Source: Candidatus Poribacteria bacterium
GTDB lineage: Bacteria; Poribacteria; WGA-4E; WGA-3G
Assembly (NCBI GenBank): GCA_963422705.1
Contig: OY730443.1
Location: 2,270,694 to 2,334,693 of the forward strand
Reading direction: 5' to 3'
Length of the DNA: 64,000 bases
Shown here: positions 2,724-50,445 of the stretch, piece after piece
How positions within the stretch are numbered: the first letter of the stretch is position 1
How the letters are laid out: every line of letters begins with the position of its first letter
The notes under the pieces: generated by a model
Databases searched by the model: none
The model's input: the letters and a program-made list of their open reading frames with translations, nothing else
Told to the model about the DNA's origin: nothing
Made by a program: the position numbers and the translations under genes

Positions 2724-3761
2724 TCAGGCGGATTCGGATTCAACCTTTACAACGATTTTACCGAATTTCTCTCCTGTAAAAAGCGCGATAAAAGCCTTTG
2801 AGGCATTCTCCAAACCTTCTACAACGGTTTCTTCCCACTTCATTTTGCCTTCCGCAATCCACTGACGCATATCGCGATAAAATTCCGCATTTCGTCCCAG
2901 ATAATCAGTGACGATAAATCCTTCTAATCGTAAACGTTTGCCGATAGCGGTACTGAGATTCGAGGGGCCCGGGGTAGGTTCAATATCGTTATAGTGGGAA
3001 ATCATACCGCACAAGGCGATGCGCCCATGCATGTTCATAACAGAAAGTGCCGCCTCAAGGTGTTTGCCGCCCACATTTTCAAAGTAGACATCAAGTCCAT
3101 TTGGGCAATGCTGCCTCAGTTCAGCTGTTAAATTATCAACAGACTTATAGTTAAACGCTGCGTCAATGCCGGCTGTCTCTAGGAGCCAATTAACCTTCCG
3201 CTCTGAGCCTGCACTCCCTACCACGCGGCATCCCTTGATTTTGGCGATTTGACAAACAACTGAACCGACAGCACCAGCAGCCGCGGAAACGAAAACAGTC
3301 TCTCCCGCTTCAGGTTGTCCAATGTCCAGTAGCCCAAAGTAGCCAGTCCGTCCGGGCATCCCTACCGCGCCCAAAAACGACTGGATTGGGGCAATAGTCA
3401 AGTCAATCTTGGTTAAAGCTTCCGCAGGGGCAACGTAACTATCTCGCCACCCTAGCATCCCGGATACAGCGTCCCCCTTATGAAACGCCGCACTCTTTGA
3501 TTCCACAATCTTACCAACACAACGCCCTTCCAGCGGCTTACCCAGCTCAGCAGCCCGCATGACACCTCGCATGTAGGGGTCCACCGATGTATACAGATTT
3601 TGAACTAACACTTCACCTGCTTTCGGTTCACGGAGTGGTACTTCAACAAGTTCAAAATCACTTTCCTTGGGCATACCGACGATACGGTTCTTGAGATGAA
3701 TTTCTCGACTATTCAGCATTATCCCTCCTATGGATTTGAAATTTCCTCTTTTCCCAAACAA
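2724..3761 (-). CDS. NADP-dependent oxidoreductase, medium-chain dehydrogenase/reductase family (YncB/LTB4DH-like)
   Basis: 345 aa. Rossmann motif AAGAVGSVVCQIAKIKGCRVVGSAGS and MDR-like architecture. The true start is probably internal (MPKESDFELVEV). Confidence 0.75.
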   Translation of the reverse strand: MFGKRGNFKSIGGIMLNSREIHLKNRIVGMPKESDFELVEVPLREPKAGEVLVQNLYTSVDPYMRGVMRAAELGKPLEGRCVGKIVESKSAAFHKGDAVSGMLGWRDSYVAPAEALTKIDLTIAPIQSFLGAVGMPGRTGYFGLLDIGQPEAGETVFVSAAAGAVGSVVCQIAKIKGCRVVGSAGSERKVNWLLETAGIDAAFNYKSVDNLTAELRQHCPNGLDVYFENVGGKHLEAALSVMNMHGRIALCGMISHYNDIEPTPGPSNLSTAIGKRLRLEGFIVTDYLGRNAEFYRDMRQWIAEGKMKWEETVVEGLENASKAFIALFTGEKFGKIVVKVESESA

Positions 3762-13313: not shown

Positions 13314-13670
13314 TGAGTTGGCAATTGAAACTCTTTAACGCAACACCCAAATTTGTCAAGCGCATCGGCTGCAATCTGCTAAGGTATCTTGGCTATAAAC
13401 CGGATGTATGGTTAGAAAACTTTCTCAAAAAGCATAAAGATTGACAACCGTAAGGGTAACGCGCTATATCTGCCCTATATCTCATACGATAAAGGAGTTG
13501 ATACGTGAAAGGCGGAGATATTCTTATTGAATGTTTGAAGGGACAGGGCATCACGGCGGTTTTCGGGATGCCTGACACCCAAAACATCCACATCTACGAT
13601 GCGCTCCTACGACGTGCTACAGGAAAGAGTGCTAATGAACTAGGAAATTCATCAGCACTCTTTTTTGGTA

Positions 13671-13743
13671 CTCCCCCAGACGGACTCGAACCGCCGACAC
13701 GATGGTTAACAGCCATCTGCTCTACCGACTGAGCTATGGGGGA
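13671..13743 (-). tRNA. tRNA-Asn (anticodon GTT)
   Basis: Reverse complement reads TCCCCCATAGCTCAGTCGGTAGAGCAGATGGCTGTTAACCATCGTGTCGGCGGTTCGAGTCCGTCTGGGGGAG. It has a 7-bp acceptor stem, a D-arm, a T-arm GGTTCGAGTCC, and an anticodon loop CTGTTAA. No CCA is encoded. Confidence 0.85.
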
Positions 13744-13795
13744 TTGTGCAAAGTAATTATACACGATTGTAACCCGAATTGCAAATTAAAATTTC

Positions 13796-14002
13796 ACTTT
13801 TTCGTCGGGTGCGGTGCGTTCATCTTCTGCTGTTTTTTCACAATCCGTGGATAATATCGTTTTTTCGTCGGGTGCAATACGCTGCGCTTCTGCTGTTTTT
13901 GACAATCCGTGGATAATATCGTTTTTTCGTCGGGTTCAGTATGCTGCGCTTCTGCTGTTTTTCACAAGCCGTGGGTAATATCGTCGGAGATTTCTCATGC
14001 AA
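13796..14002 (-). repeat. Tandem array of three ~61-80-bp repeat-family units (inverse orientation)
   Basis: Three contiguous units (tttttcgtcgggtgc...ctgctgttttt(c/g)acaa(t/g)ccgtgg(a/g)taatatcg). The array terminates in tcggagatttctcatgcaa. Not CRISPR-like: there are no spacers. Confidence 0.75.
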
Positions 14003-14043
14003 CTTAATTATAAGGGGCACGAATTTTCGCATAGGCACGGTTT

Positions 14044-32701: not shown

Positions 32702-35700
32702 ATGTCACATCATAAACCTCCTTTTAAGTCCAACATACGCGATAACCACTCCCGCGGAACTGTCGGAAACTTCCTCGACAACGAAATTAAAAAAGGTTCT
32801 AAACTCTCAATCGTCTCCGCATACTTTACAATTTACGCCTTCAATGCACTCAAAGATAGACTGAACGGAATCTCGGAACTCCGATTTCTGTTAGGGCAAC
32901 CCGACTTTATCACCGGTATGTCCCCAGGTGAATCCCAAGAAAAAGCCTTCCATATTCTAGACAGCGGCTTGCACCTTAACCAGCAGCTCCAACAAAAATC
33001 AGTCGCCAACGCATGTGCACAATGGATAAAAGAGAAGGTAGAAATCAAGAGCGCACGGCAATCAAATCTACTCCATGGCAAGATGTATTATATTGAAACC
33101 AACGGTGCGCAAAAAGCGATTATGGGGAGCTCCAATTTTACCGTGCACGGACTCGGACTGAGCCCACGGGCAAATAATATTGAACTCAATTTTGTCGTCG
33201 ATAATGACACCGACAGACAAGAAATCAAAAAATGGTTTGATGATATCTGGAACGAAAAAAAATTGTCACAGATGTTAAGGAAGATGTACTCGCCGAACTC
33301 AACCGGCTCGGAAAAGATTACGCCCCTGAGTTCATCTATTTTAAGACACTCTATGAACTGTTCAGGGATGAAATCGAATCAAGAAGAGATGGCGAACAGC
33401 AACTAGAAGATATGCATCTGTATGATACCCAGATTTGGGACGCGTTATATGGCTTTCAGAAGGACGGCGCCAAAAGCGTCATCGCCCGCCTTTTAAGACA
33501 CAACGGATGCATTTTGGCCGATAGCGTCGGACTCGGCAAAACTTATACTGCACTCGCCGTTATCAAATTTTTTGAACTGAGAAATGAGCGCATCCTTGTT
33601 TTATGCCCAAAAAAACTCAACAACAACTGGGGTAAATATTTAGCGCATACCGCCCAAAAGGACAACCCTTTTCCTAACGATAGGTTCGGTTATACCCTCT
33701 TATCACATACAGACCTTTCCCGTAGCAGCGGCAAAGCCGGCGATATTAACCTGGAAAATTTCAACTGGCGCAATTTTGATATGGTGCTAATTGACGAATC
33801 GCACAACTTCCGAAACGATACGAAACCTATCCGGGATGACGCAGGCAATATCATCCGGCATAGCCGATATACACGCCTCTTGCATGAAATTATCAAGGCA
33901 GGCACAAAAACGAAAGTACTCATGCTTTCCGCAACGCCCGTTAACACATCACTCATTGACCTCCGCAATCAAATTTACCTCATCACAGAGCAGCGCGAGG
34001 ACGCCTTCAACGACAGTTTGGGCATCCAGAACATCGGAACACTGCTACGACAGGCGCAAACGGAATTTAAAGCATGGGAGGAAAAAGAACCTAAACAGGG
34101 AAAAAGAGATAAATCAGAACTATTAAAAACATTGGGCACCGATTTTTTTACATTGCTGGGGGGCATCTCTATTGCACGGGCGCGACGCCATATTGAGAAG
34201 TTTTATGCCGACGAAATACACCGAATCGGGCCATTTCCAAAACAACTCAAACCCGAGAATTGCCACCCTAAGACGGACTTGGAAGGGAAACTTTCTTATG
34301 AAGATTTAACGGTGCTAATCGAGGACTTCTCATTATCTATCTATCGCCCTTCTAGTTACGTCATCAGTGAAACCGCGAAAAAACGGTTGGAACAGGAAAA
34401 AAAGAGATACCGTTTTAATCAGGTGGACAGGGAACGATTTCTTATCGGTATGATGCGGACGAATTTTCTCAAGCGCTTGGAAAGCTCCGCACACTCCCTC
34501 ACAAAAACGCTTGAACGGACAATCGGAAAAATTGATGATATGGTGGAGAGGATAGAACGATTCGAAAAAAAACGCGACAGCCTCCATACACACGCTGATA
34601 TACTGCCCGATGATGACGATGATGATGATGATTTTTTCGTCAATCGCGCACGCAACCCCTATCACCTACGAGAACTGGATTGCACACGATGGAAAATAGA
34701 ACTTAGAAAGGATAAAGAGAGCTTAACCGCAGCATTGAGCAAAGTCAACGTCATCACACCCGAACGGGATGGAAAACTCAAGCAAATCAAGGCACAGATT
34801 AAAGAAAAAGCACAATACTCAACGGTTGATAAGGACGGAAAAGTTAACCGGAAATTGCTAGTTTTCACGACGTTCAAAGATACTGCACTCTATCTTTATC
34901 AAAATCTCGAACCGCTTGCATCGAAACTCGGTATCAACACCGGATTCGTTGCCGGGACGGAAACGCGTACCACTTACGGCAAAAATAATTTTGACGCTAT
35001 CCTCGCCAATTTCGCCCCCCTGGCGCAGAAACGGGGAAAGAACATAAAAGACGAGGCAGAGGACACAAAAGAAGAAATCGATTTACTCATCGCTACCGAC
35101 TGCATCTCCGAAGGACAAAATCTACAGGACTGCGACACTGTATTGAACTATGACATCCACTGGAACCCAGTGCGTATCATACAACGGTTTGGGCGCATCG
35201 ACAGAATCGGAAGCCGAAATACCGCCGTACGGATGATTAACTACTGGCCCACCGAAGATATGGAAGTCTACCTCCGGTTGCAAAGCCGCGTCGAATCACG
35301 AATGGCGCTCGCTGATACAGTCGCCAGTGGCGACGACGACGTGCTCAATGAAATTACTTACGAACAAGCACAAATGGAACTCAACTTCCGGGAACAGCAA
35401 TTGCAGCAATTGCGCCAAGAGGTTCTCGACTTGGATGACATCTCCGATGGCGTCGTCATGAGCGATTTTACCCTCGATTATTTCTTCGTGCAATTGTTGA
35501 AGTATCTCGAAAAAAATAGGGAACAACTAGAAACTACACCGAAAGGGGCATACGCCATCACCGAAAACAGGGATAACCCTTTGGAAACCGACGTCATCTT
35601 TTTTCTCCGACAAATCAATGCAACGACGGATAAATACGCCAAAGTCGCAAGCCCAATTCATCCCTATTCCGCTGTTTACATTCGTGGTAACGGCGACATT

Positions 35701-36015
35701 CAATACGGATGCGCAAACGCAAAACAGGCACTGGAGCTCTTTGAAGCCCACGCTGTGGGTAATGACAAACCGCTGCGAAAACTGTGTCGCCAATTTGAGA
35801 AAGAGACGCAAAATGGCAAAGATATGGAACGTTACAACAAGCTGTTGAAAACGGTTATCGCGCACATCACCAAGACACATACAACCACACAGATAAAAAA
35901 TATGGGAATTCATGGCACCCGCAGCTTTAAACTGACACCCGCGTCTCAAAAACCGAAAGATGATAACGATTTTGAACTGGTAACGTGGCTCATTATTACA
36001 AAACCACTCTCATAA
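32702..36015 (+). CDS. PLD-like (HKD) nuclease domain fused to SNF2-family helicase, interrupted by a frameshift in an A8 tract
   Basis: Segment 1 (32702-33406) carries a single HKD-type motif LHGKMYYIETNGAQKAIMGSSNFT. The reading frame continues without stops in the +2 frame from the A8 run (33255-33262) into segment 2 (33412-36015). Segment 2 has SNF2 motifs I (ADSVGLGKT), II (LIDESHNF), III (LSATPVNT) and VI (QRFGRIDRIGS). Together they would give a ~1100-aa fusion protein. Confidence 0.8.
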
Positions 36016-36051
36016 AACCAATGCCAAAAACAGCGCAAAAATAGGAACATC

Positions 36052-36393
36052 ATGGCACATAAAAATCAATTATTTGAAAGTCGAACCGAATTTATCGCCA
36101 CACGCGGCGTTAAGGAATACCGCGAGACAATACCCACCTGGGTAACTGCAGACGATGTCGTCTTGGAAATCGGATGCGAATGGGGGACAACCACAACTGG
36201 ATACTATCGCACTCCTCACATCGTATTCAACCGTCATGCGCCCCGAGGCAATCATCGTGAAAAGCGGCGCTTTAAAACGGTTTGTCTCACACTGCACCGC
36301 TTGGCGTTCCGCCCAAAAGCAATAACAGGTGACATCAGCAATTTCTTCACCTTCCCAAATCTAAATCGGATACCCACAGCTACACCCCAATGA
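36052..36393 (+). pseudogene. Small SAM-MTase-fold gene, copy with ~200-bp internal deletion
   Basis: The first 49 codons are identical to the intact 156-aa copy at 40193-40663. After ...GTTTT the sequence jumps to the 3' portion of the gene in another frame. Confidence 0.7.
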
Positions 36394-39300
36394 ACAAAGA
36401 ACACATCAGAAACGCACTCGCCGACATCCCCACAGGCACTCTTGTCCAAACCGCAAAAGCCCTCCTCGCGACGTTGGGATACCGCAGCGAGCGGAACCTG
36501 GAACTCTCCGGAACCGTGGACGACTTTATCGAGAATTTCCCCACACGGGGACAAGAGGACAAAAAAGAACCTACCAAAACCGAACAGACATTTTGTAACA
36601 CCGTTGAATCCATCTATGTCGTCTTTCAAATCACAGAAAATGAAGTCAATCCTCAAGCCCAACAGACAGTTGATTTTGCTGAAAAAAGTCTCGCCGAAAG
36701 TTTCTGCTTTTTCGCCGCCGATTTGAAAGAGAAGCCCACATCCCGCAGCCGCTACGCCGAATTGACACGCGAAATCAATAAGCGGCTCTCTATCCCGGCG
36801 GTGGCGCTCTTTCGCACCGGGAACCGGTTGACAATTGGGGTTGCAGGACGCCGGCAACACCGCCGGAAATCGGGGCGCGATGTCATAGAACGGGTGACGC
36901 TCATCAAGGACATTCGCCTCGAAAATCCGCACCGGGCACACCTTGATATCTTGGCAGAACTCGCCCTCGGAGAATGCATGCAATGGATGGATGCCCACAA
37001 AAAACAGAGAAGCTTTGACGAACTCCTCGACACCTGGCTCGCTAAACTCGACACTGAAGAACTCAATAAGCAGTTCTACCGGAGGTTATTCGCATGGTTT
37101 GAATGGGCAATCTCCGAGGCGACGTTCCCAAAAAACGAAAAGAAAATCTTAAAGCCCGAAGAACACGTGATACGACTCATCACACGCATCCTGTTTATCT
37201 GGTTCTTGAAGGAGCAGGGACTGGTTGCCGATGCACTTTTCAATCAAACACAAATCCCTTCCCTTCTAAAAGATGACGATTTCGATAACGGAAGCTCCTA
37301 CTATCGGGCCGTGCTACAAAATCTGTTTTTTGCTACACTGAACACCGAGATAAAGCAACGCGGTTTTAGCAGCAATACACCTACCGGGCATCGCGACTTC
37401 TCGCGTTACCGCTACGCAGCGGAAATACGCGCCCCTGAGAAACTGGTGGAACTCTTCGCGCAAACCCCCTTTGTCAATGGGGGACTGTTTGAGTGTCTCG
37501 ATAGCGAGGAAGCAGCGATGCACGGCGGATACCGCATCGACTGTTTCTCTGATAAACACGGCAAAAAATTGTGCTTCCCCAACCGCCTCTTTTTTGATAA
37601 ACACTGTGGACTCTTCCCCCTCCTCAATCACTACAAATTCACCATAGAAGAGAATATCCCGGTAGAACAAGAAGTCGCCTTGGAACCAGAATTGCTCGGG
37701 AAGGTGTTTGAAAACCTGCTGGCGGCTTACAATCCGGAGACGGGTACGACGGCGCGTAAAGGGACAGGCTCCTACTACACGCCGCGCGTCGTCGTCGACT
37801 ATATGATAGACGAGATAGTGGTTGCAACCCTGGTAGAAAAGTGTCAGCCGTCCGATGGGGACGCGACACTCTGGGAAGAACGCCTGCGCTACCTATTGGA
37901 TTATGGGCAGACGTTTGACGATGCAAATGAATGGTTTGATGCCCCGGAAACCGACGCGATTGTGCGCACAATTTCGGAGCTGAAAATTCTGGAACCGGCC
38001 GTCGGTTCCGGGGCTTTTCCGCGCGCGATGCTCCGAAAACTCACGCTTGCCCTCCGCCGACTCGATTCGGCAAATCAACGATGGCAGCAGCTGCAAAGAA
38101 GACGCGCCGCACAGAGAGCGGAAGATGCCTTTGAAACCGACGATGACGAAGCGCGACGCGAAGAACTCATTGAAATTGATGAGACGTTCAGACGTTACCG
38201 GGATTCCGACTTCGGCAGGAAGTTATACCTCATTCAGAATAACCTTTTCGGGGTGGACATCCAACCCATAGCCTGCCAAATTACCAAGCTCCGCTTCTTT
38301 ATCTCCCTCGCTATTGAGCAGAAACCGGCGCGGCATCTCGATAATTTCGGGTTCAAACCACTCCCAAACCTCGAGACGCGGTTTCTTGCCGCGAATACCC
38401 TTGTCCGGCTGCAAGGGCAACCCGAATTCGTAACAGTCCATATCCAAGCGTTAGAGCGGCAACTCCGCGAGAATCGCGAACGGCACTTCCACGCCACCAC
38501 CCGTCAGCAAAAGCTTGACTGTATTAGCAACGACAAAGCCATCCGCACAGAATTAGCCGCGGCATTAGAGGAACTCGGTTTCTTTGCACGGGACGCCCAA
38601 AACATCGCGCACTGGAACCCTTACCAGCAGAACGAGAATGCCGACTGGTTCGAACCGGAATGGATGTTCGGGATTAACGACGGGTTTGATATCGTGATGG
38701 GGAACCCGCCATATATTTCAGTTACGAAGATTCCTGCCCCGTTGAGGGATTACCTATTCGAAAACTATCAAACCTGTATAAAGAGAACAGATATCTATAT
38801 CGCGTTCCTCGAAAGAGCCCTTTCCATTCTACAGCCGAACGGGATGATGTGTTTTATTCTCTCGTCGGCGTTTGCGAAACAGAAATATGGCGAAAAGATG
38901 CGCAGACGCCTCATAGAAAATCACGCCATCCGCGACATTGTGGATGCGAGCCGTTATCGGATTTTTGAGAATGCGGCAGTACATAACATCGTTTTGCTGG
39001 TAGGCAATCAAAAAACAGATGTCGAAACGCGAATCCGATTGCATACCAGCAACGCGGATTTTGAGACACCGGGTGAGTGCGCATTTTCTATCAAGCAAGA
39101 CGATTTTGCGGAACTGAAAGATGCCCGCCTTGAAACCGCTCCGAATATTCGTGAAAGTCTCAGGGTGAAAAAGAGGATATGGGAGCGCGCGGTGCGTTTC
39201 GATAAGATTTGCCTTGTCGCTTACGGCGCCAGGCTCAATTCCCCTTTAGCGGGAAAAAGAAAACAGGATTACATCAGCGAAGCCCGTCTTGCAGGGCGCA

Positions 39301-39890
39301 AACGGTTTTGTGAAGGAAGAGACATTCGGCGTTATACGTTTTCTCAAACCGGATGGTTACGCTACTCGCCGAATGAACACTACAACCCGATGTTTCCAGA
39401 ACTTTTTGAAACCGAAAAGTTGATGTTTGCCCGTATTGTGAATGAGCGGTTGCGATTTGCTTATGACGCCGAACGGTTCTACAATTGCAATACGGTTATA
39501 AACTGTGTTCGCTTAGATTTACTTTCCGGTGCCTCCCATATCACCGCCCGCCGCGCAACGCAATCTGCTGATAACAAATTCGCGAAGCGGTATGATTACA
39601 AATTTCTGTTGGGCGCTTTAAATTCTGGTGTCACAAATTGGTATTTCCGCAGTTTCTTAAGCACAGGTTTAGATTGTTACCCGGATGATGTAAAAGAGTT
39701 GCCTATCCCAAAAATGTCGCGTCAGCAGCAACAACCGATTATTGGGTTGACATCTCAAATTCTCGCGGCGAAAGCGAGGGATTCGGAGGCGGACGTCTCC
39801 GCTCTTGAAGCGGAGATTGACAGGCTGCTCTGCGCTTTCTACAAGCTTACCGCGGAGGAGATGCGTATCCTGGAGCATGGGCGGGGATGA
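36390..39890 (+). CDS. Eco57I/PglX/DrmMI-like gamma-class N6-adenine DNA methyltransferase with C-terminal TaqI_C-type target-recognition region (paralog 1 of 3)
   Basis: 1166 aa. Motif X GSYYTP, motif I ILEPAVGSGAFP, motif IV GNPPYI. The C-terminal tail LPIPKMSRQQQQPIIG...EIDRLLCAFYKLTAEEMRILE matches the conserved end of Type IIG/PglX enzymes. No PD-(D/E)xK motif was recognised in the long N-terminal domain. Confidence 0.85.
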   Translation: MNKEHIRNALADIPTGTLVQTAKALLATLGYRSERNLELSGTVDDFIENFPTRGQEDKKEPTKTEQTFCNTVESIYVVFQITENEVNPQAQQTVDFAEKSLAESFCFFAADLKEKPTSRSRYAELTREINKRLSIPAVALFRTGNRLTIGVAGRRQHRRKSGRDVIERVTLIKDIRLENPHRAHLDILAELALGECMQWMDAHKKQRSFDELLDTWLAKLDTEELNKQFYRRLFAWFEWAISEATFPKNEKKILKPEEHVIRLITRILFIWFLKEQGLVADALFNQTQIPSLLKDDDFDNGSSYYRAVLQNLFFATLNTEIKQRGFSSNTPTGHRDFSRYRYAAEIRAPEKLVELFAQTPFVNGGLFECLDSEEAAMHGGYRIDCFSDKHGKKLCFPNRLFFDKHCGLFPLLNHYKFTIEENIPVEQEVALEPELLGKVFENLLAAYNPETGTTARKGTGSYYTPRVVVDYMIDEIVVATLVEKCQPSDGDATLWEERLRYLLDYGQTFDDANEWFDAPETDAIVRTISELKILEPAVGSGAFPRAMLRKLTLALRRLDSANQRWQQLQRRRAAQRAEDAFETDDDEARREELIEIDETFRRYRDSDFGRKLYLIQNNLFGVDIQPIACQITKLRFFISLAIEQKPARHLDNFGFKPLPNLETRFLAANTLVRLQGQPEFVTVHIQALERQLRENRERHFHATTRQQKLDCISNDKAIRTELAAALEELGFFARDAQNIAHWNPYQQNENADWFEPEWMFGINDGFDIVMGNPPYISVTKIPAPLRDYLFENYQTCIKRTDIYIAFLERALSILQPNGMMCFILSSAFAKQKYGEKMRRRLIENHAIRDIVDASRYRIFENAAVHNIVLLVGNQKTDVETRIRLHTSNADFETPGECAFSIKQDDFAELKDARLETAPNIRESLRVKKRIWERAVRFDKICLVAYGARLNSPLAGKRKQDYISEARLAGRKRFCEGRDIRRYTFSQTGWLRYSPNEHYNPMFPELFETEKLMFARIVNERLRFAYDAERFYNCNTVINCVRLDLLSGASHITARRATQSADNKFAKRYDYKFLLGALNSGVTNWYFRSFLSTGLDCYPDDVKELPIPKMSRQQQQPIIGLTSQILAAKARDSEADVSALEAEIDRLLCAFYKLTAEEMRILEHGRG

Positions 39891-40192: not shown

Positions 40193-40663
40193 ATGGCACA
40201 TAAAAATCAATTATTTGAAGGTCGAACCGAATTTATCGCCACGCGCGGCGTTAAGGAATACCGCGAGACAATACCCACCTGGGTAACTGCAGACGATGTC
40301 GTCTTGGAAATCGGATGCGAATGGGGGACAACCACAACACTAATCGCCCCGCACTGCCAGAAAGTCATCGCGACTGATATCAGCACCAAATGTATTCACC
40401 GTGCACGAGAAATGTACCCTCAACTTCAATTTGAACTGCTTGACGGTTTTGATATCAGGGCAGCGCTTGAACTTGGTGAACCGTTTAGCAAAATCTACAT
40501 CGATATTTCGGGGCTGTCAGGCTACAACTCACTGCTGGATACTATCGCACTCCTCACATCGTATGCAACCGTCATGCGCCCCGAGGCAATCATCGTGAAA
40601 AGCGGCGCTTTAAAACGGTTTGTCTCACACTGCACCGCTTGGCGTTCCGCCCAAAAGCAATAA
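40193..40663 (+). CDS. Small class-I SAM-dependent methyltransferase-fold protein (156 aa)
   Basis: Motif I-like VLEIGCEWGTTT, acidic beta-2 end VIATDIS, then LQFELLDGFD and IYIDIS. A minimal Rossmann MTase core; function unknown. Confidence 0.4.
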   Translation: MAHKNQLFEGRTEFIATRGVKEYRETIPTWVTADDVVLEIGCEWGTTTTLIAPHCQKVIATDISTKCIHRAREMYPQLQFELLDGFDIRAALELGEPFSKIYIDISGLSGYNSLLDTIALLTSYATVMRPEAIIVKSGALKRFVSHCTAWRSAQKQ

Positions 40664-40727: not shown

Positions 40728-43700
40728 ATGAACAAAGAACACATCAGAAACGCACTCGCCGACATCCCAACAGGCAATCTTGTCCAAACCGCAAAAGCCC
40801 TCCTCGCGACGATGGGATACCGCAGCGAGCGGAACCTGGAACTCTCCGGAACCGTGGACGACTTTATCGAGAATTTCCCCACACGGGGACAAGAGGACAA
40901 AAAAGAACCTACCAAAACCGAACAGACATTTCGTAACACCGTTGAATCCATCTATGTCGTCTTTCAAATCACAGAAAATGAAATCAATCCTCAAGCCCAA
41001 CAGACAGTTGATTTTGCTGAAAAAAGTCTCGCCGAAAGTTTCTGCTTTTTCGCCGCCGATTTGAAAGAGAAGCCTACCTCCCGCAGCCGCTACGCCGAAT
41101 TGACACGGGAAATCAATAAGCGACTCTCTATCCCGGCGGTGGTGCTCTTTCGCACCGGGAACCGGTTGACAATTGGGGTTGCAGGACGCCGGCAACACCG
41201 CCGGAAATCGGGGCGCGATGTCATAGAACGGGTGACGCTCATCAAGGACATTCGCCTCGAAAATCCGCACCGGGCACACCTTGATATCTTGGCAGAACTC
41301 GCCCTCGGAGAATGCATGCAATGGATGGATGCCCACAAAAAACAGAGAAGCTTTGACGAACTCCTCGACACCTGGCTCGCTAAACTCGACACTGAAGAAC
41401 TCAATAAGCAGTTCTACCGGAGGTTATTCGCATGGTTTGAATGGGCAATCTCCGAGGCGACGTTCCCAAAAAACGAAAAGAAAATCTTAAAGCCCGAAGA
41501 ACACGTGATACGACTCATCACACGCATCCTGTTTATCTGGTTCTTGAAGGAGCAGGGACTGGTTGCCGATGCACTTTTCAATCAAACACAAATCCCTTCC
41601 CTTCTAAAAGATGACGATTTCGATAACGGAAGCTCCTACTATCGGGCCGTGCTACAAAATCTGTTTTTTGCTACACTGAACACCGAGATAAAGCAACGCG
41701 GTTTTAGCAGCAATACACCTACCGGGCATCGCGACTTCTCGCGTTACCGCTACGCAGCGGAAATACGCGCCCCTGAGAAACTGGTGGAACTCTTCGCGCA
41801 AACCCCCTTTGTCAATGGGGGACTGTTTGAGTGTCTCGATAGCGAGGAAGCAGCGATGCACGGCGGATACCGCATCGACTGTTTCTCTGATAAACACGGC
41901 AAAAAATTGTGCTTCCCCAACCGCCTCTTTTTTGATAAACACTGTGGACTCTTCCCCCTCCTCAATCACTACAAATTCACCATAGAAGAGAATATCCCGG
42001 TAGAACAAGAAGTCGCCTTGGAACCAGAATTGCTCGGGAAGGTGTTTGAAAACCTGCTGGCGGCTTACAATCCGGAGACGGGTACGACGGCGCGTAAAGG
42101 GACAGGCTCCTACTACACGCCGCGCGTCGTCGTCGACTATATGATAGACGAGATAGTGGTTGCAACCCTGGTAGAAAAGTGTCAGCCGTCCGATGGGGAC
42201 GCGACACTCTGGGAAGAACGCCTGCGCTACCTATTGGATTATGGGCAGACGTTTGACGATGCAAATGAATGGTTTGATGCCCCGGAAACCGACGCGATTG
42301 TGCGCACAATTTCGGAGCTGAAAATTCTGGAACCGGCCGTCGGTTCCGGGGCTTTTCCGCTCGCGATGCTCCGAAAACTCACGCTTGCCCTCCGCCGACT
42401 CGATTCGGCAAATCAACGATGGCAGCAGCTGCAAAGAAGACGCGCCGCACAGAGAGCGGAAGATGCCTTTGAAACCGACGATGACGAAGCGCGACGCGAA
42501 GAACTCATTGAAATTGATGAGACGTTCAGACGTTACCGGGATTCCGACTTCGGCAGGAAGTTATACCTCATTCAGAATAACCTTTTCGGGGTGGACATCC
42601 AACCCATAGCCTGCCAAATTACCAAGCTCCGCTTCTTTATCTCCCTCGCTATTGAGCAGAAACCGGCGCGGCATCTCGATAATTTCGGGTTCAAACCACT
42701 CCCAAACCTCGAGACGCGGTTTCTTGCCGCGAATACCCTTGTCCGGCTGCAAGGGCAACCCGAATTCGTAACAGTCCATATCCAAGCGTTAGAGCGGCAA
42801 CTCCGCGAGAATCGCGAACGGCACTTCCACGCCACCACCCGTCAGCAAAAGCTTGACTGTATTAGCAACGACAAAGCCATCCGCACAGAATTAGCCGCGG
42901 CATTAGAGGAACTCGGTTTCTTTGCACGGGACGCCCAAAACATCGCGCACTGGAACCCTTACCAGCAGAACGAGAATGCCGACTGGTTCGAACCGGAATG
43001 GATGTTCGGGATTAACGACGGGTTTGATATCGTGATGGGGAACCCGCCATATATTTCAGTTACGAAGATTCCTGCCCCGTTGAGGGATTACCTATTCGAA
43101 AACTATCAAACCTGTATAAAGAGAACAGATATCTATATCGCGTTCCTCGAAAGAGCCCTCTCCATTCTACAGCCGAACGGGATGATGTGTTTTATTCTCT
43201 CGTCGGCGTTTGCGAAACAGAAATATGGCGAAAAGATGCGCAGACGCCTCATAGAAAATCACGCCATCCGCGACATTGTGGATGCAAGCCGTTATCGGAT
43301 TTTTGAGAATGCGGCAGTACATAACATCGTTTTGCTGGTAGGCAATCAAAAAACAGATGTCGAAACGCGAATCCGATTGCATACCAGCAACGCGGATTTT
43401 GAGACACCGGGTGAGTGCGCATTTTCTATCAAGCAAGACGATTTTGCGGAACTGAAAGATGCCCGCCTTGAAACCGCTCCGAATATTCGTGAAAGTCTCA
43501 GGGTGAAAAAGAGGATATGGGAGCGCGCGGTGCGTTTCGATAAGATTTGCCTTGTCGCTTACGGCGCCAGGCTCAATTCCCCTTCAGCGGGAAAAAGAAA
43601 ACAGGATTACATCAGCGATGTCCGTCTTCCACGAGGTAAACGGTTTTGTGAAGGAAGAGACATTCGGCGTTATACGTTTTCTCAAACCGGATGGTTACGC

Positions 43701-44228
43701 TACTCGCCGAATGAACACTACAACTCGATGTTTCCAGAACTTTTTGAAACCGAAAAGTTGATGTTTCTCGGGATTGTAAAAGAGGGGTTGCGATGTGCTT
43801 ATGACGCCGAACGGTTCTACAATTGCAGCACGGTTATAAACTGTGTTCGCTTAGATTTACTTTCCGGTGCCTCTCATATCACAGCCCGCCGCGCAACGCA
43901 ATCTGCTGATAACAAATTCGTGAAGCGGTATGATTACAAATTTCTGTTGGGCGTTTTAAATTCTGGCGTCACAAATTGGTATTTCCGCAGCTTTTTAAGC
44001 GAGGGGTTACATTGTCACCCAAATGATGTAAAAGAGTTGCCTATTCCAAAAATGCCGCGCCAGCAGCAGCAACCGATTATTGGGTTGACATCTCACATTC
44101 TCGCGGCGAAAGCGGAGGATTCGGAGGCGGACGTCTCCGCTCTTGAAGCGGAGATTGACAGGCTGCTCTGCGCTTTCTACAACTTTACGCCGGAGGAGAT
44201 GCGTATCCTGGAGTGTAGGTGGGGATAA
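40728..44228 (+). CDS. Eco57I/PglX/DrmMI-like N6-adenine DNA methyltransferase (paralog 2, TRD variant)
   Basis: 1166 aa with the same motifs as paralog 1. Near-identical to paralog 1 except for clustered substitutions in the C-terminal ~250 aa (DVRLPRG, LGIVKEGLRC, SEGLHCHPND, YNFTPEEMRILECRWG). Confidence 0.85.
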   Translation: MNKEHIRNALADIPTGNLVQTAKALLATMGYRSERNLELSGTVDDFIENFPTRGQEDKKEPTKTEQTFRNTVESIYVVFQITENEINPQAQQTVDFAEKSLAESFCFFAADLKEKPTSRSRYAELTREINKRLSIPAVVLFRTGNRLTIGVAGRRQHRRKSGRDVIERVTLIKDIRLENPHRAHLDILAELALGECMQWMDAHKKQRSFDELLDTWLAKLDTEELNKQFYRRLFAWFEWAISEATFPKNEKKILKPEEHVIRLITRILFIWFLKEQGLVADALFNQTQIPSLLKDDDFDNGSSYYRAVLQNLFFATLNTEIKQRGFSSNTPTGHRDFSRYRYAAEIRAPEKLVELFAQTPFVNGGLFECLDSEEAAMHGGYRIDCFSDKHGKKLCFPNRLFFDKHCGLFPLLNHYKFTIEENIPVEQEVALEPELLGKVFENLLAAYNPETGTTARKGTGSYYTPRVVVDYMIDEIVVATLVEKCQPSDGDATLWEERLRYLLDYGQTFDDANEWFDAPETDAIVRTISELKILEPAVGSGAFPLAMLRKLTLALRRLDSANQRWQQLQRRRAAQRAEDAFETDDDEARREELIEIDETFRRYRDSDFGRKLYLIQNNLFGVDIQPIACQITKLRFFISLAIEQKPARHLDNFGFKPLPNLETRFLAANTLVRLQGQPEFVTVHIQALERQLRENRERHFHATTRQQKLDCISNDKAIRTELAAALEELGFFARDAQNIAHWNPYQQNENADWFEPEWMFGINDGFDIVMGNPPYISVTKIPAPLRDYLFENYQTCIKRTDIYIAFLERALSILQPNGMMCFILSSAFAKQKYGEKMRRRLIENHAIRDIVDASRYRIFENAAVHNIVLLVGNQKTDVETRIRLHTSNADFETPGECAFSIKQDDFAELKDARLETAPNIRESLRVKKRIWERAVRFDKICLVAYGARLNSPSAGKRKQDYISDVRLPRGKRFCEGRDIRRYTFSQTGWLRYSPNEHYNSMFPELFETEKLMFLGIVKEGLRCAYDAERFYNCSTVINCVRLDLLSGASHITARRATQSADNKFVKRYDYKFLLGVLNSGVTNWYFRSFLSEGLHCHPNDVKELPIPKMPRQQQQPIIGLTSHILAAKAEDSEADVSALEAEIDRLLCAFYNFTPEEMRILECRWG

Positions 44229-44268: not shown

Positions 44269-47200
44269 TGAAACGCGGGGTAACAAATTTTTTGTATGCG
44301 TGCATAAAAACTCGGTAAAAGATTAGCGGGACTACTATGTGAAAAGCGGCGCTTTAAAACTGTTTGTCTCACACTGCAATCTAAGTCGGATACCCACAGC
44401 TACACCCCAATGAACAAAGAACACATCAGAAACGCACTCGCCGACATCCCCACAGGCACTCTTGTCCAAACCGCAAAAGCCCTCCTCGCGACGTTGGGAT
44501 ACCGCAGCGAGCGGAACCTGGAACTCTCCGGAACCGTGGACGACTTTATCGAGAATTTCCCCACACGGGGACAAGAGGACAAAAAAGAACCTACTAAAAC
44601 CGAACAGACATTTCGTAACACCGTTGAATCCATCTATGTCGTCTTTCAAATCACAGAAAATGAAGTCAATCCTCAAGCCCAACAGACAGTTGATTTTGCT
44701 GAAAAAAGTCTCGCCGAAAGTTTCTGCTTTTTCGCCGCCGATTTGAAAGAGAAGCCCACATCCCGCAGCCGCTACGCCGAATTGACACGCGAAATCAATA
44801 AGCGGCTCTCTATCCCGGCGGTGGCGCTCTTTCGCACCGGGAACCGGTTGACAATTGGGTTTGCAGGACGCCGGCAACACCGCCGGAAATCGGGGCTCGA
44901 TGTCATAGAACGGGTGACGCTCATCAAGGACATTCGCCTCGAAAATCCGCACCGCGCACACCTTGATATCTTGGCAGAACTCGCCCTGGGAGAATGCCTG
45001 CAATGGATGGATGCCCACAAAAAACAGAGAAACTTTGACGGACTCCTCGACACCTGGTTCGCTAAACTCGACACCGAAGAACTCAATAAGCAGTTCTACC
45101 GGAGGTTATTCGCATGGTTTGAATGGGCAATCTCCGAGGCGACGTTCCCAAAAAACGAAAAGAAAATCTTAAAGCCAGAAGAACACGTGATACGATTCAT
45201 TACACGCATCCTGTTTATCTGGTTCTTGAAGGAGCAGGGACTGGTTGCCGACGCACTTTTCAATCAAACACAAATCCCTTCCCTTCTAAAAGATGACGAT
45301 TTCGATAACGGAAGCTCCTACTATCGGGCCGTGCTACAAAATCTGTTTTTCGCTACACTGAACACCGAGATAACGCGGCGCGGTTTTAGCAGCAATACAC
45401 CTACCGGGCATCGCGACTTCTCGCGTTACCGCTACGCAGCGGAGATACGCGCCCCTGAGAAACTGTTGGAACTCTTCGCGCAAACCCCCTTTGTCAATGG
45501 CGGACTGTTTGAGTGTCTCGATAGCGAGGAGGCAGCGATGCACGGCGGATACCGCATCGACTGTTTCTCTGATAAACACGGCAAAAAATTGTGCTTCCCC
45601 AACCGTCTCTTTTTTGATAAACACCGCGGACTCTTCCCCCTCCTCAATCACTACAAATTCACCATAGAAGAGAATACCCCGGTAGAACAAGAAGTCGCCT
45701 TGGAACCAGAATTGCTCGGGAAGGTGTTTGAAAACCTGCTGGCGGCTTACAACCCGGAAACGGGTACGACGGCGCGTAAAGGGACAGGCTCCTACTACAC
45801 GCCGCGCGTCATCGTCGACTATATGATAGACGAGATAGTGGTTGCAACCCTGGTAGAAAAGTGTCAGCCGTCCGATGGGGACGCGACACTCTGGGAAGAA
45901 CGCCTTCGCTACCTATTGGATTATGGGCAGACGTTTGACGATGCAAATGAATGGTTTGATGCACCGGAAACTGACGCGATTGTGCGCACAATTTCGGAGC
46001 TGAAAATTCTGGAACCGGCCGTCGGTTCCGGGGCTTTTCCGCGCGCGATGCTCCGAAAACTCACGCTTGCCCTCCGCCGACTCGATTCGGCAAATCAACG
46101 ATGGCAGCAGCTGCAAAGGAGACGCGCCGCACAGAGAGCAGAAGATGCCTTTGAAACCGACGATGACGAAGCGCGACGCGAAGAACTCATTGAAATTGAT
46201 GAGACGTTCAGACGTTACCGGGATTCCGACTTCGGCAGGAAGTTATACCTCATTCAGAATAACCTTTTCGGGGTGGACATCCAACCCATAGCCTGCCAAA
46301 TTACCAAGCTCCGCTTCTTTATCTCCCTCGCTATTGAGCAGAAACCGGCGCGGCATCTCGATAATTTCGGGTTCAAACCGCTCCCAAACCTCGAGACGCG
46401 GTTTCTTGCCGCGAATACCCTCGTCGGGCTGCAAGGGCAACCCGAATTAGTAACAGTCCATGTCCAAGCGTTAGAGCGGCAACTCCGCGAGAATCGCGAA
46501 CGGCACTTCCACGCCACCACCCGTCAGCAAAAGCTTGACTGTATTAGCAACGACAAAGCCATCCGCACAGAATTAGCCGCGGCATTAGAGGAACTCGGGT
46601 TCTCTGCACGTAACGCCGAAAACATCGCGCACTGGAACCCTTACGAGCAGAACGAGAACGCCGACTGGTTCGAACCGGAATGGATGTTCGGGATTAACGA
46701 TGGTTTTGATATCGTGATGGGGAACCCGCCATATATTTCAGTTACGAAGATTCCTGCCCCGTTGAGGGATTACCTATTCGAAAACTATCAAACCTGTATC
46801 AGGAGAACAGATATCTATATCGCGTTCCTCGAAAGAGCCCTCTCCATTCTACAGCCGAACGGGATGATGTGTTTTATTCTCTCGTCGGCGTTTGCGAAAC
46901 AGAAATATGGCGAAAAGATGCGCAGACGCCTCATAGAAAATCACGCCATCCGCGACATTGTGGATGCAAGCCGTTATCGGATTTTTGAGAATGCGGCAGT
47001 ACATAACATCGTTTTGCTGGTAGGCAATCAAAAAACAGATGTCGAAACGCAAATCCGATTGCATACCAGCAACGCGGATTTTGAGACACCGGGTGAATGC
47101 GCATTTTCTATCAAGCAAGACGTTTTTGCGGAACTGAAAGATGCCCGCCTTGAAACCGCTCCGAATATTCGTGAAAGTCTCAGGGTGAAAAAGAGGATAT

Positions 47201-47950
47201 GGGAGCGCGCGGTGCGTTTCGATAAGATTTGCCTTGTCGCTTACGGCGCCAGGCTCAATTCCCCTTCAGCGGGAAAAAGAAAACAGGATTACATCAGCGA
47301 AGCCCGTCTTGCAGGGCGCAAACGGTTTTGTGAAGGAAGAGACATTCGGCGTTATACGTTTTCTCAAACCGGATGGTTACGCTACTCGCCGAATGAACAC
47401 TACAACCCGATGTTTCCAGAACTTTTTGAAACCGAAAAGTTGATGTTTACCTGTATTGTGAATGAGCGGTTGCGATTTGCTTATGACGCCGAACGGTTCT
47501 ACAATTCCCACACGGTTATAAACTGTGTTCGCTTAGATTTACTTTCCGGTGCCTCCCATATCACCGCCCGCCGCGCAACGCAATCTGCTGATAACAAATT
47601 CGCGAAGCGGTATGATTACAAATTTCTGTTGGGCGTTTTAAATTCTGGCGTCACAAATTGGTATTTCCGCAGTTTCTTAAGCACAGGTTTAAATTGTTAC
47701 CCGGATGATGTAAAAGAGTTGCCTATCCCAAAAATGTCGCGCCAGCAGCAACAACCGATTATTGGGTTGACATCTCAAATTCTCGCGGCGAAAGCGGAGG
47801 ATTCGGAGGCGGACGTCTCCGCTCTTGAAGCGGAGATTGACAGGCTGCTCTGCGCTTTCTACAAGCTTACCGCGGAGGAGATGAGTATCCTGGAGCATGG
47901 GCGGGGATGAATTCTCTGAATTTCTGGTTATCAGGTTTCTAATCACATTG
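44269..47950 (+). repeat. Tandem repeat unit 3 (~3.7 kb)
   Basis: Only the last ~35 bp of the small gene remain upstream of paralog 3. Confidence 0.8.
44410..47910 (+). CDS. Eco57I/PglX/DrmMI-like N6-adenine DNA methyltransferase (paralog 3)
   Basis: 1166 aa and overall the most divergent copy, with substitutions scattered along its length. Its TRD patches resemble paralog 1. Confidence 0.85.
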   Translation: MNKEHIRNALADIPTGTLVQTAKALLATLGYRSERNLELSGTVDDFIENFPTRGQEDKKEPTKTEQTFRNTVESIYVVFQITENEVNPQAQQTVDFAEKSLAESFCFFAADLKEKPTSRSRYAELTREINKRLSIPAVALFRTGNRLTIGFAGRRQHRRKSGLDVIERVTLIKDIRLENPHRAHLDILAELALGECLQWMDAHKKQRNFDGLLDTWFAKLDTEELNKQFYRRLFAWFEWAISEATFPKNEKKILKPEEHVIRFITRILFIWFLKEQGLVADALFNQTQIPSLLKDDDFDNGSSYYRAVLQNLFFATLNTEITRRGFSSNTPTGHRDFSRYRYAAEIRAPEKLLELFAQTPFVNGGLFECLDSEEAAMHGGYRIDCFSDKHGKKLCFPNRLFFDKHRGLFPLLNHYKFTIEENTPVEQEVALEPELLGKVFENLLAAYNPETGTTARKGTGSYYTPRVIVDYMIDEIVVATLVEKCQPSDGDATLWEERLRYLLDYGQTFDDANEWFDAPETDAIVRTISELKILEPAVGSGAFPRAMLRKLTLALRRLDSANQRWQQLQRRRAAQRAEDAFETDDDEARREELIEIDETFRRYRDSDFGRKLYLIQNNLFGVDIQPIACQITKLRFFISLAIEQKPARHLDNFGFKPLPNLETRFLAANTLVGLQGQPELVTVHVQALERQLRENRERHFHATTRQQKLDCISNDKAIRTELAAALEELGFSARNAENIAHWNPYEQNENADWFEPEWMFGINDGFDIVMGNPPYISVTKIPAPLRDYLFENYQTCIRRTDIYIAFLERALSILQPNGMMCFILSSAFAKQKYGEKMRRRLIENHAIRDIVDASRYRIFENAAVHNIVLLVGNQKTDVETQIRLHTSNADFETPGECAFSIKQDVFAELKDARLETAPNIRESLRVKKRIWERAVRFDKICLVAYGARLNSPSAGKRKQDYISEARLAGRKRFCEGRDIRRYTFSQTGWLRYSPNEHYNPMFPELFETEKLMFTCIVNERLRFAYDAERFYNSHTVINCVRLDLLSGASHITARRATQSADNKFAKRYDYKFLLGVLNSGVTNWYFRSFLSTGLNCYPDDVKELPIPKMSRQQQQPIIGLTSQILAAKAEDSEADVSALEAEIDRLLCAFYKLTAEEMSILEHGRG

Positions 47951-48072
47951 TGAATGGTTTTTTGGTACCTGATACCCTTCTTTTCTGTGTTGCGTTCAGA
48001 TGGCAATACCTCCCAAAAAGTTGTATATAACCGACATCCCCGGGTGTTGCACATCTAAAAGGAGTGTTTACA

Positions 48073-48954
48073 ATGTTAAAAGACTTATTTTCCAACCGCC
48101 TTTTTATCAGTGTGTTAGGACTCTTTATCTTCTGCGTTGTCGGCAGCCTGCTTTACATGCAGCATGTCGAGAAGCAACGAAAGCAGGAGGTGGCGGAGGC
48201 GCATGAACGCATCAACCAGTGGAATGCGTCTCGGGCGACATCCTCGCCCCCAACTGATACCGCGCAAGGCGGACACTTGCACGATGGCGCGGGACACGCC
48301 GAACCACATGCAGACACGAGCGTTTCACAGCGTTCCGAGGCGGAAAAAAAACCCGATGCGGAAGACATTGATTCTAAACGTGGTGTCTTGACAGAGGAGC
48401 AACGTACGGGATATCTCAAATATTTGGAAGAGCTGGGGCTGGAACCGCCGCCGAAAGGCTACAACTACGAATGGGATGCCGAGGGGAATGTCTCGCTCTA
48501 TGAGTATAATGTCCCGACGTTTGAAACGACATGGTCCGAAGAGTCTGAGCCTGGACGGGATTTTTACAAACTCACAGACGACGAATGGAGGCGGTATAGA
48601 GCCTTAGGGCATATCATCTCTCAAACCCCACTCCGAATTGAAGGAGAAGACTTAAAGCGGCTAGCTCGGGGAGAGCCGACACCAAAGGTGAACTACGCGC
48701 CCGGCGTTGTTGAGCTCGCGGAAGAGTGGCGAGATGAACTGTGGCAGAAAACCGCAGGCCCCAGCCCCAGTGTGTCTACCAGTGTCACTTGGAATAGAGA
48801 GCCCACTGAAAAAGAACTCAAAGACATAGCACGCCGGGAATATGAGTTACTCAAGGCGATGGAAAAACCGGAACGTCCGTCTCCGGGCCCTTGGGATGAA
48901 AACTTTATTGATGCCCTCGTCAAAGAACTTGGAGCAGAAGTACAAAGCAGATAA
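48073..48954 (+). CDS. Hypothetical membrane-anchored protein
   Basis: RBS AAAGGAG lies 8 nt upstream of the ATG at 48073. N-terminal TM helix and an acidic, Pro-rich extracytoplasmic region. Confidence 0.5.
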   Translation: MLKDLFSNRLFISVLGLFIFCVVGSLLYMQHVEKQRKQEVAEAHERINQWNASRATSSPPTDTAQGGHLHDGAGHAEPHADTSVSQRSEAEKKPDAEDIDSKRGVLTEEQRTGYLKYLEELGLEPPPKGYNYEWDAEGNVSLYEYNVPTFETTWSEESEPGRDFYKLTDDEWRRYRALGHIISQTPLRIEGEDLKRLARGEPTPKVNYAPGVVELAEEWRDELWQKTAGPSPSVSTSVTWNREPTEKELKDIARREYELLKAMEKPERPSPGPWDENFIDALVKELGAEVQSR

Positions 48955-48958
48955 ATTC

Positions 48959-49195
48959 ATGAAAACATTAACCCTAACCTTTTTCTTAACAATCGTCCTT
49001 CTCTTGTTGGCGGCCCCACTCTCTGATGGGCTTGAGACAGCTGGCGAAGCCACCTGCACTGGGAGTTGGTCCGGGACGACGGATTGGTGGTGGGAGTCTT
49101 CAGGTACCACAATCACAGAGAAGTGGGAATGGCGCGGACTCAACACGATGTATCCATATAGGGCAAAATCCGATAAAGAAACCAAACCTGAATAG
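48959..49195 (+). CDS. Small secreted Trp-rich protein
   Basis: Signal peptide MKTLTLTFFLTIVLLLLAAP. It starts 5 nt after the upstream stop and is followed by a terminator. Confidence 0.45.
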   Translation: MKTLTLTFFLTIVLLLLAAPLSDGLETAGEATCTGSWSGTTDWWWESSGTTITEKWEWRGLNTMYPYRAKSDKETKPE

Positions 49196-49219
49196 CGACA
49201 CTTTTTCTGTCAAACACAC

Positions 49220-49257
49220 GCGGGCACCCTCTCCACTGACAAGGTGCCCGCTTTTTT
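49220..49257 (+). terminator. Rho-independent terminator
   Basis: GCGGGCACC-N14-GGTGCCCGC followed by TTTTTT. Confidence 0.7.
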
Positions 49258-49502
49258 AGAAAGGCAGAAATCTTATTCTTTTGGGCTACCTACGACGCCT
49301 GTCTTCCACGAAGTAAACGGTTTTGTGAAGGAAAATGCATTGCGCGCTGTGCCCGTTTGTTACGGTAGTCAGATGCTTCGCGAAAACAGGGACATCCGTC
49401 CAACGTGAGATGCTGTCAGTCGGCGCGCATCGACATCAGAGCAAAGATTCGCAAGTTAGGCGGTGCCCGGCGGTTGAGCATCCGGTATTGCATGGCGAAA
49501 AA

Positions 49503-50273
49503 TTATGTTTTAATCACAAAGAATTTTTCCTCTTTAATCTGTTCTTCAGGAAATCGTGCGCGTGCCCAGATAGCCTTTGCATTCTCTATCATCTGCGGAT
49601 GTCCACATGCATAGACGACGGCGTTATTTGCATTAAAATCGTTGGCATCGCCATATTTCCGAATCACATCTTCAGCGCGTCCACTCTCCCCCGTCCATTC
49701 CGGTTCTTCCCAGGGGCGACTTACCGTGGGCACAAATGTGAACCAGTCTTCTTGTTCGGCGAGGGTGCTGAGTTCGTCCATGTAGTATCCAAGTTCCCAT
49801 GAATGGCTAGCGCCGACAATTGCGAGGATTTGATGGGGGCTGTTTTCGCCGCGTTCCTGCTCAATTTTTTGTGTGCGTGCGATGCTAATGTATGGTGCTG
49901 CGCCAGTGACAGTACCCGCCATCAGGTGCCGCGTCATTCCGGTTTCGGTGTCCAAAACAAATTTCCCGACGAGCTTTTCGCGGAAGAAGACACTATCGCC
50001 GAGGTTGAGCTCCCAAAAGCGTGGTGTGGTTTCGCCTTCTGGTACGAGTTCGACGAAAACTTCCATAAACGGTTCATGGGGTGAGGAAACAATGGAGTAT
50101 GGGCGTTGTACGATTTTTTCGCCGGCTTCAAAGCCGATAGTGGCGTATTGTCCTGCAATAAACGACAGGGTTTTCTCAGTACGAAACTTGAAGGCGGCTA
50201 AATCTTCGGAGAAGTCTTCGCGCTCAATGAGTTCCCCTTTACAATATCGCGCTCTTGCGCGTCTTCTTTGCAT
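49503..50273 (-). CDS. Ferredoxin-NADP+ reductase-family oxidoreductase (FAD/NAD(P)-binding)
   Basis: RPYSIVSSP (RxYS FAD-binding motif) and GTVTGAAPYISIA (NAD(P)-binding). Confidence 0.65.
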   Translation of the reverse strand: MQRRRARARYCKGELIEREDFSEDLAAFKFRTEKTLSFIAGQYATIGFEAGEKIVQRPYSIVSSPHEPFMEVFVELVPEGETTPRFWELNLGDSVFFREKLVGKFVLDTETGMTRHLMAGTVTGAAPYISIARTQKIEQERGENSPHQILAIVGASHSWELGYYMDELSTLAEQEDWFTFVPTVSRPWEEPEWTGESGRAEDVIRKYGDANDFNANNAVVYACGHPQMIENAKAIWARARFPEEQIKEEKFFVIKT

Positions 50274-50328
50274 AATAACTTCCTCTACAATATTGCGCTC
50301 TTGCGCGTCTTCTTTGCATAATAACTTG
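50241..50328. repeat. 46-bp tandem duplication spanning the start codon region of the FNR-like gene
   Basis: acaatat(c/t)gcgctcttgcgcgtcttctttgcataataactt x2. Confidence 0.7.
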
Positions 50329-50445
50329 CACTTTTTTCAGAACTTCGCGCCAAGAAGTTTTAGAACAGAAATCAAGAATTGATTGCATATCTGCATGCGT
50401 CTTGTTCATAATTATATCTGAAAACCGAATTTTTTGGTAACAAAA

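Follow-up and report, generated by a model that had tools for sequence, protein, structure and literature searches.

A tiny methyltransferase gene relic, too short for a spare specificity cassette, beside a mosaic tandem array in Candidatus Poribacteria

A defence-type island lies upstream of an oxidoreductase gene in the chromosome of a Candidatus Poribacteria sponge symbiont and contains three tandem copies of a methyltransferase (MTase) gene. About 1.4 kb past this array, in a non-coding gap, there is a leftover of ~50 nt from the same gene, here called the orphan. Is it a spare piece of specificity information on which the array can draw, or a trace of earlier rearrangement? The features of the window (the whole 64-kb stretch of DNA that was analysed) are collected in Table 1. 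The three MTase paralogs, p1, p2 and p3, each encode 1166 residues and are 97–98% identical at the DNA level. Two convergent, unrelated genes flank the orphan, which lies ~160 nt past the oxidoreductase stop codon (49503) and antisense to that gene. The orphan is also past a hairpin that is likely to be the terminator of the upstream genes; this hairpin is the only stable element in both folds, and a consensus scan did not list it.

Table 1 Features of the defence island, the MTase array and the surroundings of the orphan (positions in the window)
Feature	Position	Strand	Details
PLD/HKD nuclease ORF	32702–33406		
SNF2 helicase ORF	33412–36015		
MTase paralog 1 (p1)	36390–39890	+	1166 aa; Eco57I / N6_Mtase / TaqI_C
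p1 counterpart of orphan	39278–39331	+	28/33 in core; 19-nt exact block 39300–39318
MTase paralog 2 (p2)	40728–44228	+	unique variants at gene nt 42–416 and 2892–3500 (variant TRD)
p2 counterpart of orphan	43616–43669	+	gene nt 2889–2942, aa 964–981 DVRLPRGKRFCEGRDIRR; contains p2-specific patch (gene nt 2892–2910)
MTase paralog 3 (p3)	44410–47910	+	unique variants at gene nt 451–2714; TRD nearly the same as p1 TRD
p3 counterpart of orphan	47298–47351	+	28/33 in core; 19-nt exact block 47320–47338
orf293	48073–48954	+	293 aa, hydrophobic N-terminus, no Pfam match; unrelated, between array and orphan
orf78	48959–49195	+	78 aa, unrelated small ORF, no Pfam family match
G+C-rich hairpin, then T6	49220–49251	+ (T-run)	inverted repeat; orphan lies 3' of hairpin
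Orphan fragment	49293–49346	+	homologous to start of MTase TRD (hypervariable loop and KRFCEG motif)
FAD/NAD-binding oxidoreductase	49503–50273	-	convergent; synteny anchor across Poribacteria

The orphan matches p2 best. Its core (49301–49333) is identical to p2 43624–43656 at 32 of 33 nucleotides (blastn-short, E = 2e-10), and over 49293–49341 blastn gives 42/49 identities to p2 and 39/49 to both p1 and p3, with E = 6e-9. With up to three mismatches allowed, a 34-mer from the orphan is found at two sites only in the 64 kb, the orphan itself and p2, with none expected from 100 shuffles. The region 47903–50278, orphan included, is reproduced without a single difference over 2376 nt in an independent Logan assembly of run ERR11641160 (contig L082). 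An earlier note, made from the sequence alone, had pointed to this match and considered it unlikely to arise by chance, a judgement borne out by the shuffles (0 in 100) and the E-value of the core. The details were less accurate: the core matches at 32/33 and not 36/37, the two 44-mers quoted are identical at 38 of 44 positions, and the strings lie at 49298–49341 in the orphan and at 43621–43664 in p2, the latter 9 nt away from the 43612–43655 reported. The claim that the fragment does not match p1 or p3 holds only in part: the core is still 28/33 identical to p1 and to p3, and a 19-nt exact block, AAACGGTTTTGTGAAGGAA (49315–49333), is common to the orphan and all three paralogs. The longest exact runs shared with p2 are 21 nt (43636–43656, equal to 49313–49333) and then 10 nt.

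The homology is sharply bounded. It is detectable over ~49293–49346, with a permissive Smith–Waterman limit of 49293–49358 and weak similarity that may reach 49358, and corresponds to 11–18 codons of a TRD of ~200 aa. The in-frame translation, ..DACLPRSKRFCEGKCIAR.., aligns at the protein level only with aa 964–981 of p2 (DVRLPRGKRFCEGRDIRR) and covers a 7-residue loop and, at the entrance of TaqI_C (aa 973–1104 of the MTase according to Pfam), the conserved KRFCEG motif. The frame then closes at a stop codon (49366–49368), after 25 codons and seven codons past the aligned stretch. Compared with the MTase head, the MTase tails, the region upstream of the TRD and the orthologue from a related locus (L001), the flanks of the orphan scored no better than shuffles, and 47955–49510, when compared by Smith–Waterman and tblastn with the heads and tails of all paralogs and with the L001 orthologue, gave nothing beyond 49293–49358. 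No second MTase fragment was found by blastn of 35–50.5 kb against the whole window; the array shares exact stretches of 15 nt or more with other parts of the window only at the orphan and in a few chance-level 16-mers, and no MTase fragments flank the orthologous MTases in the three related loci L001, L084 and L085. The local alignment to the three paralogs and the search for further TRD fragments, both proposed in the earlier note as checks, gave a homology that ends at 49293–49358 and no other fragment in the window or in these loci. By the standard that the earlier note itself set, a match confined to ~40 nt with nothing similar elsewhere (here, in the window and the related loci), the orphan is largely uninformative.

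An alignment of the orphan with p1–p3, the Poribacteria orthologues from L001, L084 and L085 and 30 protein homologues allows its relationship to the present copies to be judged. The family consensus is ..SGSK(R/Q)FCEGK(N/S)IERY... In p2 this region holds the densest cluster of p2-specific sites, seven in 19 nt, followed by 88 nt without such a site. At these seven sites the orphan has the p2 base at four, the p1/p3 base at one and neither at two, and the derived L-P-R states in the orphan are common to p2 only. At the sole site where its core departs from p2 the orphan reads AGT (Ser), as do all outgroups, and just 3' of the core it carries AGT, AAA and ATTG states that are found in other Poribacteria orthologues and not in p1–p3. 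Over the 13 nt after the core (AAA..CATTG.GCG) it is identical to L001 at 10/13 and to p1–p3 at 8/13; over 49334–49350 the figures are 11/17 to L084, L085 and L001 against 10/17 to p1–p3. This 3' similarity over 13–17 nt is non-random (empirical P 0.0005–0.002, best of four references), and that of the 5' flank is marginal (P about 0.04–0.05). The outgroup states at the core mismatch and 3' of the core indicate that the orphan is not a fresh copy of the present p2. To judge from these sequence states, it appears to preserve an older version of the TRD start, the core of which may be co-ancestral with the p2 patch or may have been homogenised with it by one short exchange. A core of 97% identity beside flanks of ~60% is more than uniform neutral decay can account for, and an extra step has to be assumed, either an exchange with p2 or a templated insertion flanked by microhomology. 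The sharp 33-nt core could otherwise stem from a short templated insertion whose ends were microhomologous, in which case part of the flank similarity would be fortuitous.

The array itself is more informative. It is demonstrably active in recombination, the paralogs being clear mosaics of head, middle and TRD blocks. Diagnostic sites of p1–p3 fall into 11 runs against 54 expected, a value reached in none of 10,000 shuffles; between p1 and p2, 3 of 2370 sites differ in the middle block and 50 of 701 in the TRD block. The spacers are unstable as well: that between p1 and p2 holds copies of 35512–35612 and 35887–36197 (the SNF2 tail) with internal deletions, and that between p2 and p3 is different. 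A 14.4-kb contig of 1x coverage from another analysis (ENA ERZ25070844, ctg7049_1x_c; L083) consists of array units only and holds at least four tandem MTase copies. One of its junctions is undeleted, with 39929 joined to 35512–36389, and it has head/TRD combinations that do not occur in the window, such as a p2 head joined to a p1 TRD; the p2 TRD and the p2 patch are missing from all of its complete copies. The view that TRD variants move by recombination, which the earlier note had drawn from the orphan, is therefore strongly supported, but by the block mosaic of the paralogs and the combinations in the second assembly and not by the orphan.

Several further features of the island were observed. 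An intact gene for a 156-aa SAM-methyltransferase-like protein lies between p1 and p2 (40193–40663) and is 84.5% identical in amino acids to an ORF between SNF2 and MTase in L001. At the original position upstream of p1 (36052–36326) the same gene has lost aa ~45–105; with this upstream copy degraded, the only intact copy is now inside the array, and the gene recurs between the MTase copies of L083. The p2–p3 junction carries a 66-nt filler (44273–44338) with no source in the window except a 17/18 match to 49863–49880 in the oxidoreductase gene (E = 0.015, partly low-complexity), which is possibly another templated snippet or chance. The PLD–SNF2 frame (within 32702–36015) is broken at an A8 run, 33255–33262, where A9 would restore WNEKKIVTDVK; the break may reflect a HiFi error in the homopolymer, genuine inactivation of the nuclease–helicase or slipped-strand phase variation. 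The first and last 1359 nt of L083 are identical but for one mismatch, which is uninformative as p1- and p2-type cores are identical there; with its '_c' suffix, the contig could represent a cycle in the assembly graph, a longer array carried by another strain or an excised circle.

Related loci show how the region of the orphan differs from its equivalents. Oxidoreductase orthologues are 81–89% identical in 80 Poribacteria genomes, and the intergenic region with the orphan is not conserved at the nucleotide level in these 80 other loci, homology stopping at the oxidoreductase stop codon. L001, with an oxidoreductase 89% identical, is the only relative with the island beside the same gene; its single MTase gene, a broken ORF, precedes FRG-like and TPR ORFs, and the orphan is missing. 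L084 and L085 have a fused PLD–SNF2 gene (1091 aa), a single MTase and an FRG–TPR gene. No FRG–TPR gene is present in the window and, given this difference from the relatives, the island has been reshaped on its right side in this lineage, which is the setting in which a scar would arise. No closely related strain with an intermediate state was found, and exact-protein look-ups for same-species loci (p2, the oxidoreductase, orf78 and two orf293 paralogs) gave no matches. In L084 a 938-aa ORF without Pfam match (13492–16308) lies between the MTase and the FRG–TPR gene and is absent from the otherwise collinear L085; it may be an optional extra component of the defence island.

The neighbours of the orphan also have features of their own. 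The orf293 family is restricted to Poribacteria and multi-copy, with several 50–55% identical paralogs on the same 4.0-Mb contig; as a carrier of the fragment it was rejected, a paralog elsewhere (L081) having an unrelated context without orphan-like sequence. A 46-nt tandem duplication (~50238–50329) spans the start codon of the oxidoreductase, giving in-register CAT/ATG candidates at 50273 and 50319. A 16-mer in each duplication unit (50257–50272 and 50303–50318) matches the reverse complement of p1 and p2 at chance level.

Could the orphan be a silent TRD cassette? The bounded match, the in-frame stop, the intergenic position past a terminator and the lack of a recombinase within 10 kb indicate that it is not. 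In place of a complete alternative TRD it covers aa 964–981 of 1166 only, between flanks at the level of shuffles, and in place of repeats on both sides it has one exact block of 19–21 nt 3' of the patch and 5–10 nt of identity 5' of it. There is no adjacent site-specific recombinase: scans of ORFs of at least 150 aa over ~26–58 kb with Pfam, NCBIfam and PADLOC found no integrase, invertase or transposase. The earlier suggestion of a donor fragment finds no support as far as a TRD donor is meant, with 11–18 codons set against ~200 aa, a stop codon, no flanking homology and no other fragments; at most, the orphan could possibly have exchanged a 5-residue patch (aa 964–970) with p2. Other identities were also rejected. 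A DGR template repeat finds no reverse transcriptase in domain scans of the ORFs over 26–58 kb, and the flank mismatches include C/T and T/C besides A/G, so that they are not adenine-specific. There is no CRISPR array from which a spacer could come, the orphan being flanked only by a weak 25-nt direct pair (72%), and an att-like site is excluded by the lack of flanking repeats and of a recombinase. As to a repeated or mobile element, no further copy of the 307-nt intergenic region turned up in 1.5 Mb of Poribacteria loci, and a 31-mer gave no matches in viral contigs that would point to phage origin.

We consider it probable that the orphan is a non-coding fossil, presumably without function, of the initial ~50 nt of an MTase TRD, left by remodelling of the array. 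It has the marks of a pseudogene or scar: significant homology to a functional gene, no intact ORF, a non-coding position, and an orthologous position in the relatives (80 Poribacteria loci; L001) from which it is absent. Duplication, deletion and template-switch events would continually remodel the MTase array, one of them leaving a scar in the intergenic gap. The scar would descend from an older or p2-type TRD start and not from the present p2, and its 33-nt near-identity to p2 would reflect common descent of the patch or one short-tract exchange. We infer that the scar was deposited either when a former copy was deleted or when a short templated insertion arose at the junction of a rearrangement. 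The relic of a further copy proposed in the earlier note is thus plausible and is the reading we prefer. What speaks against such a fossil is that a two-sided deletion sparing just ~50 nt is improbable a priori. The orphan would have no function of its own.

A different possibility, unlikely but with several observations in its favour, is a smaller version of the idea in the earlier note: the orphan would be a live short-patch gene-conversion partner from which p2 received, or still receives, the 5-residue LPR(S/G)K patch at the TRD entrance, so that a hypervariable loop is diversified. The phylogenetic signal is incongruent within 60 nt, the core L-P-R being with p2 only and the 3' K/ATTG being as in outgroups and not as in p1–p3. 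The dense clustering of p2-specific sites in the patch also counts in its favour, the aligned 7-residue stretch is hypervariable across the family, and a transfer from orphan to p2 is slightly the likelier direction given that the orphan has the ancestral AGT. Common descent of the patch, however, explains the sharing equally well. Moreover, the patch sites at gene nt 2892 and 2894 are not common to the orphan, the complete copies in L083 all lack the p2 patch, and there is a single such fragment, in direct orientation and with no recombinase nearby. Exact runs of just 21 nt and 10 nt are marginal against the minimal homology for RecA.

A broader proposal is that the orphan is a retained mini-cassette, which rewrites the 5–7-residue loop at the TRD entrance by very short-tract conversion, or the direct-repeat anchor of a reversible collapse of the array. 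We regard this as improbable; if true, it would amount to recombinase-free tuning of methyltransferase specificity or dosage in a sponge symbiont. The direct orientation means that recombination between orphan and array would delete and not invert. It is very improbable that the orphan is functional, either by pairing with the MTase mRNAs as an antisense part of the oxidoreductase 3' UTR or as a direct-repeat anchor for a deletion of the distal array that truncates the MTase before its TRD. On the minus strand the only strong hairpin lies beyond the orphan, so that the oxidoreductase transcript probably reads through the orphan, and the complementarity would be 33 nt to p2 or 19 nt to p1 and p3; as an anchor, its direct orientation would give a deletion product ending ...KRFCEGKCIARCARLLR*. 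Against these roles, the orphan region has no Rfam match and no promoter-like site nearby, its folds are not above shuffles (z −0.4 and −0.8), the antisense target would lie deep inside a 3.5-kb ORF, and there is the lack of intergenic conservation in the 80 other loci. Finally, a chance resemblance or an assembly artefact, which a short fragment in a metagenome-derived assembly might suggest, is next to impossible given the E-values and the absence of expected matches in shuffles, the preserved reading frame and family motif, and the identity of the independent Logan contig.

On the preferred reading of a fossil scar, the orphan alone matters little: it preserves an earlier form of the TRD start and bears witness to rearrangement at the right edge of the defence island. 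Of greater interest is the neighbouring array. With three nearly identical 3.5-kb MTase genes (at least four in the other assembly), reassortment of blocks lets a population keep several variants with no dedicated recombinase. Should p2-type and p1/p3-type TRDs differ in the motifs that they recognise, the uncultured symbiont would have a simple way to make its methylome heterogeneous.

The island is of a type known from defence systems. Like other islands that combine PLD/HKD–SNF2 proteins with an Eco57I-like N6-adenine MTase, it matches the PADLOC candidate 'HKD+Snf2' (C3a139, E = 9e-93). The components of such islands resemble DrmD, DrmC and DrmMI of DISARM and PglX of BREX, and the E-values here are 4e-34, 3.5e-5, 1e-13 and 9e-20, respectively. 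NCBIfam BREX PglX scores are far below cut-offs, and no DrmA/DrmB or BREX core genes were found among the scanned ORFs. Compared with the PLD–SNF2/MTase islands of other Poribacteria, the MTase is triplicated here, the FRG–TPR gene is absent and the PLD–SNF2 frame is broken at A8. Silent TRD cassettes are known from phase-variable R-M shufflons, inverting Type I hsdS systems like SpnD39III/ivr of S. pneumoniae and hsd of Mycoplasma pulmonis. The array with its orphan shares with these the extra specificity-determining copies near an expressed MTase or specificity gene and a recombination that diversifies specificity, but differs in having no complete silent TRD, no inverted repeats and no nearby site-specific recombinase, and in the direct orientation of the orphan.

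Another parallel is the TRD 'domain movement' and the allelic exchange of TRDs, through homologous recombination, in Type I, IIG and III methyltransferases of Helicobacter pylori (Furuta et al. 2011, PMC3077401; Furuta et al. 2014, PMC3983042). As far as these accounts go, MTase segments including the TRD reassort there via conserved flanks, as the head, middle and TRD do here among p1–p3 and the L083 copies; here, however, the partners are full-length tandem paralogs at one Poribacteria locus, and the orphan carries no TRD. The orphan itself can be compared with gene relics or pseudogene fragments at the edges of tandem duplicates, including short templated insertions at rearrangement junctions, being short, non-coding, sharply bounded and derived from a neighbouring gene, next to an array with deleted junctions and population-level copy-number variation. 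It departs from them in that its central 33 nt are far better kept relative to one paralog than the flanks, which points to exchange at a later time or to very short templated copying. The orphan is thus a genuine and statistically solid but tiny gene relic, an ordinary scar that is too short for a spare specificity cassette.
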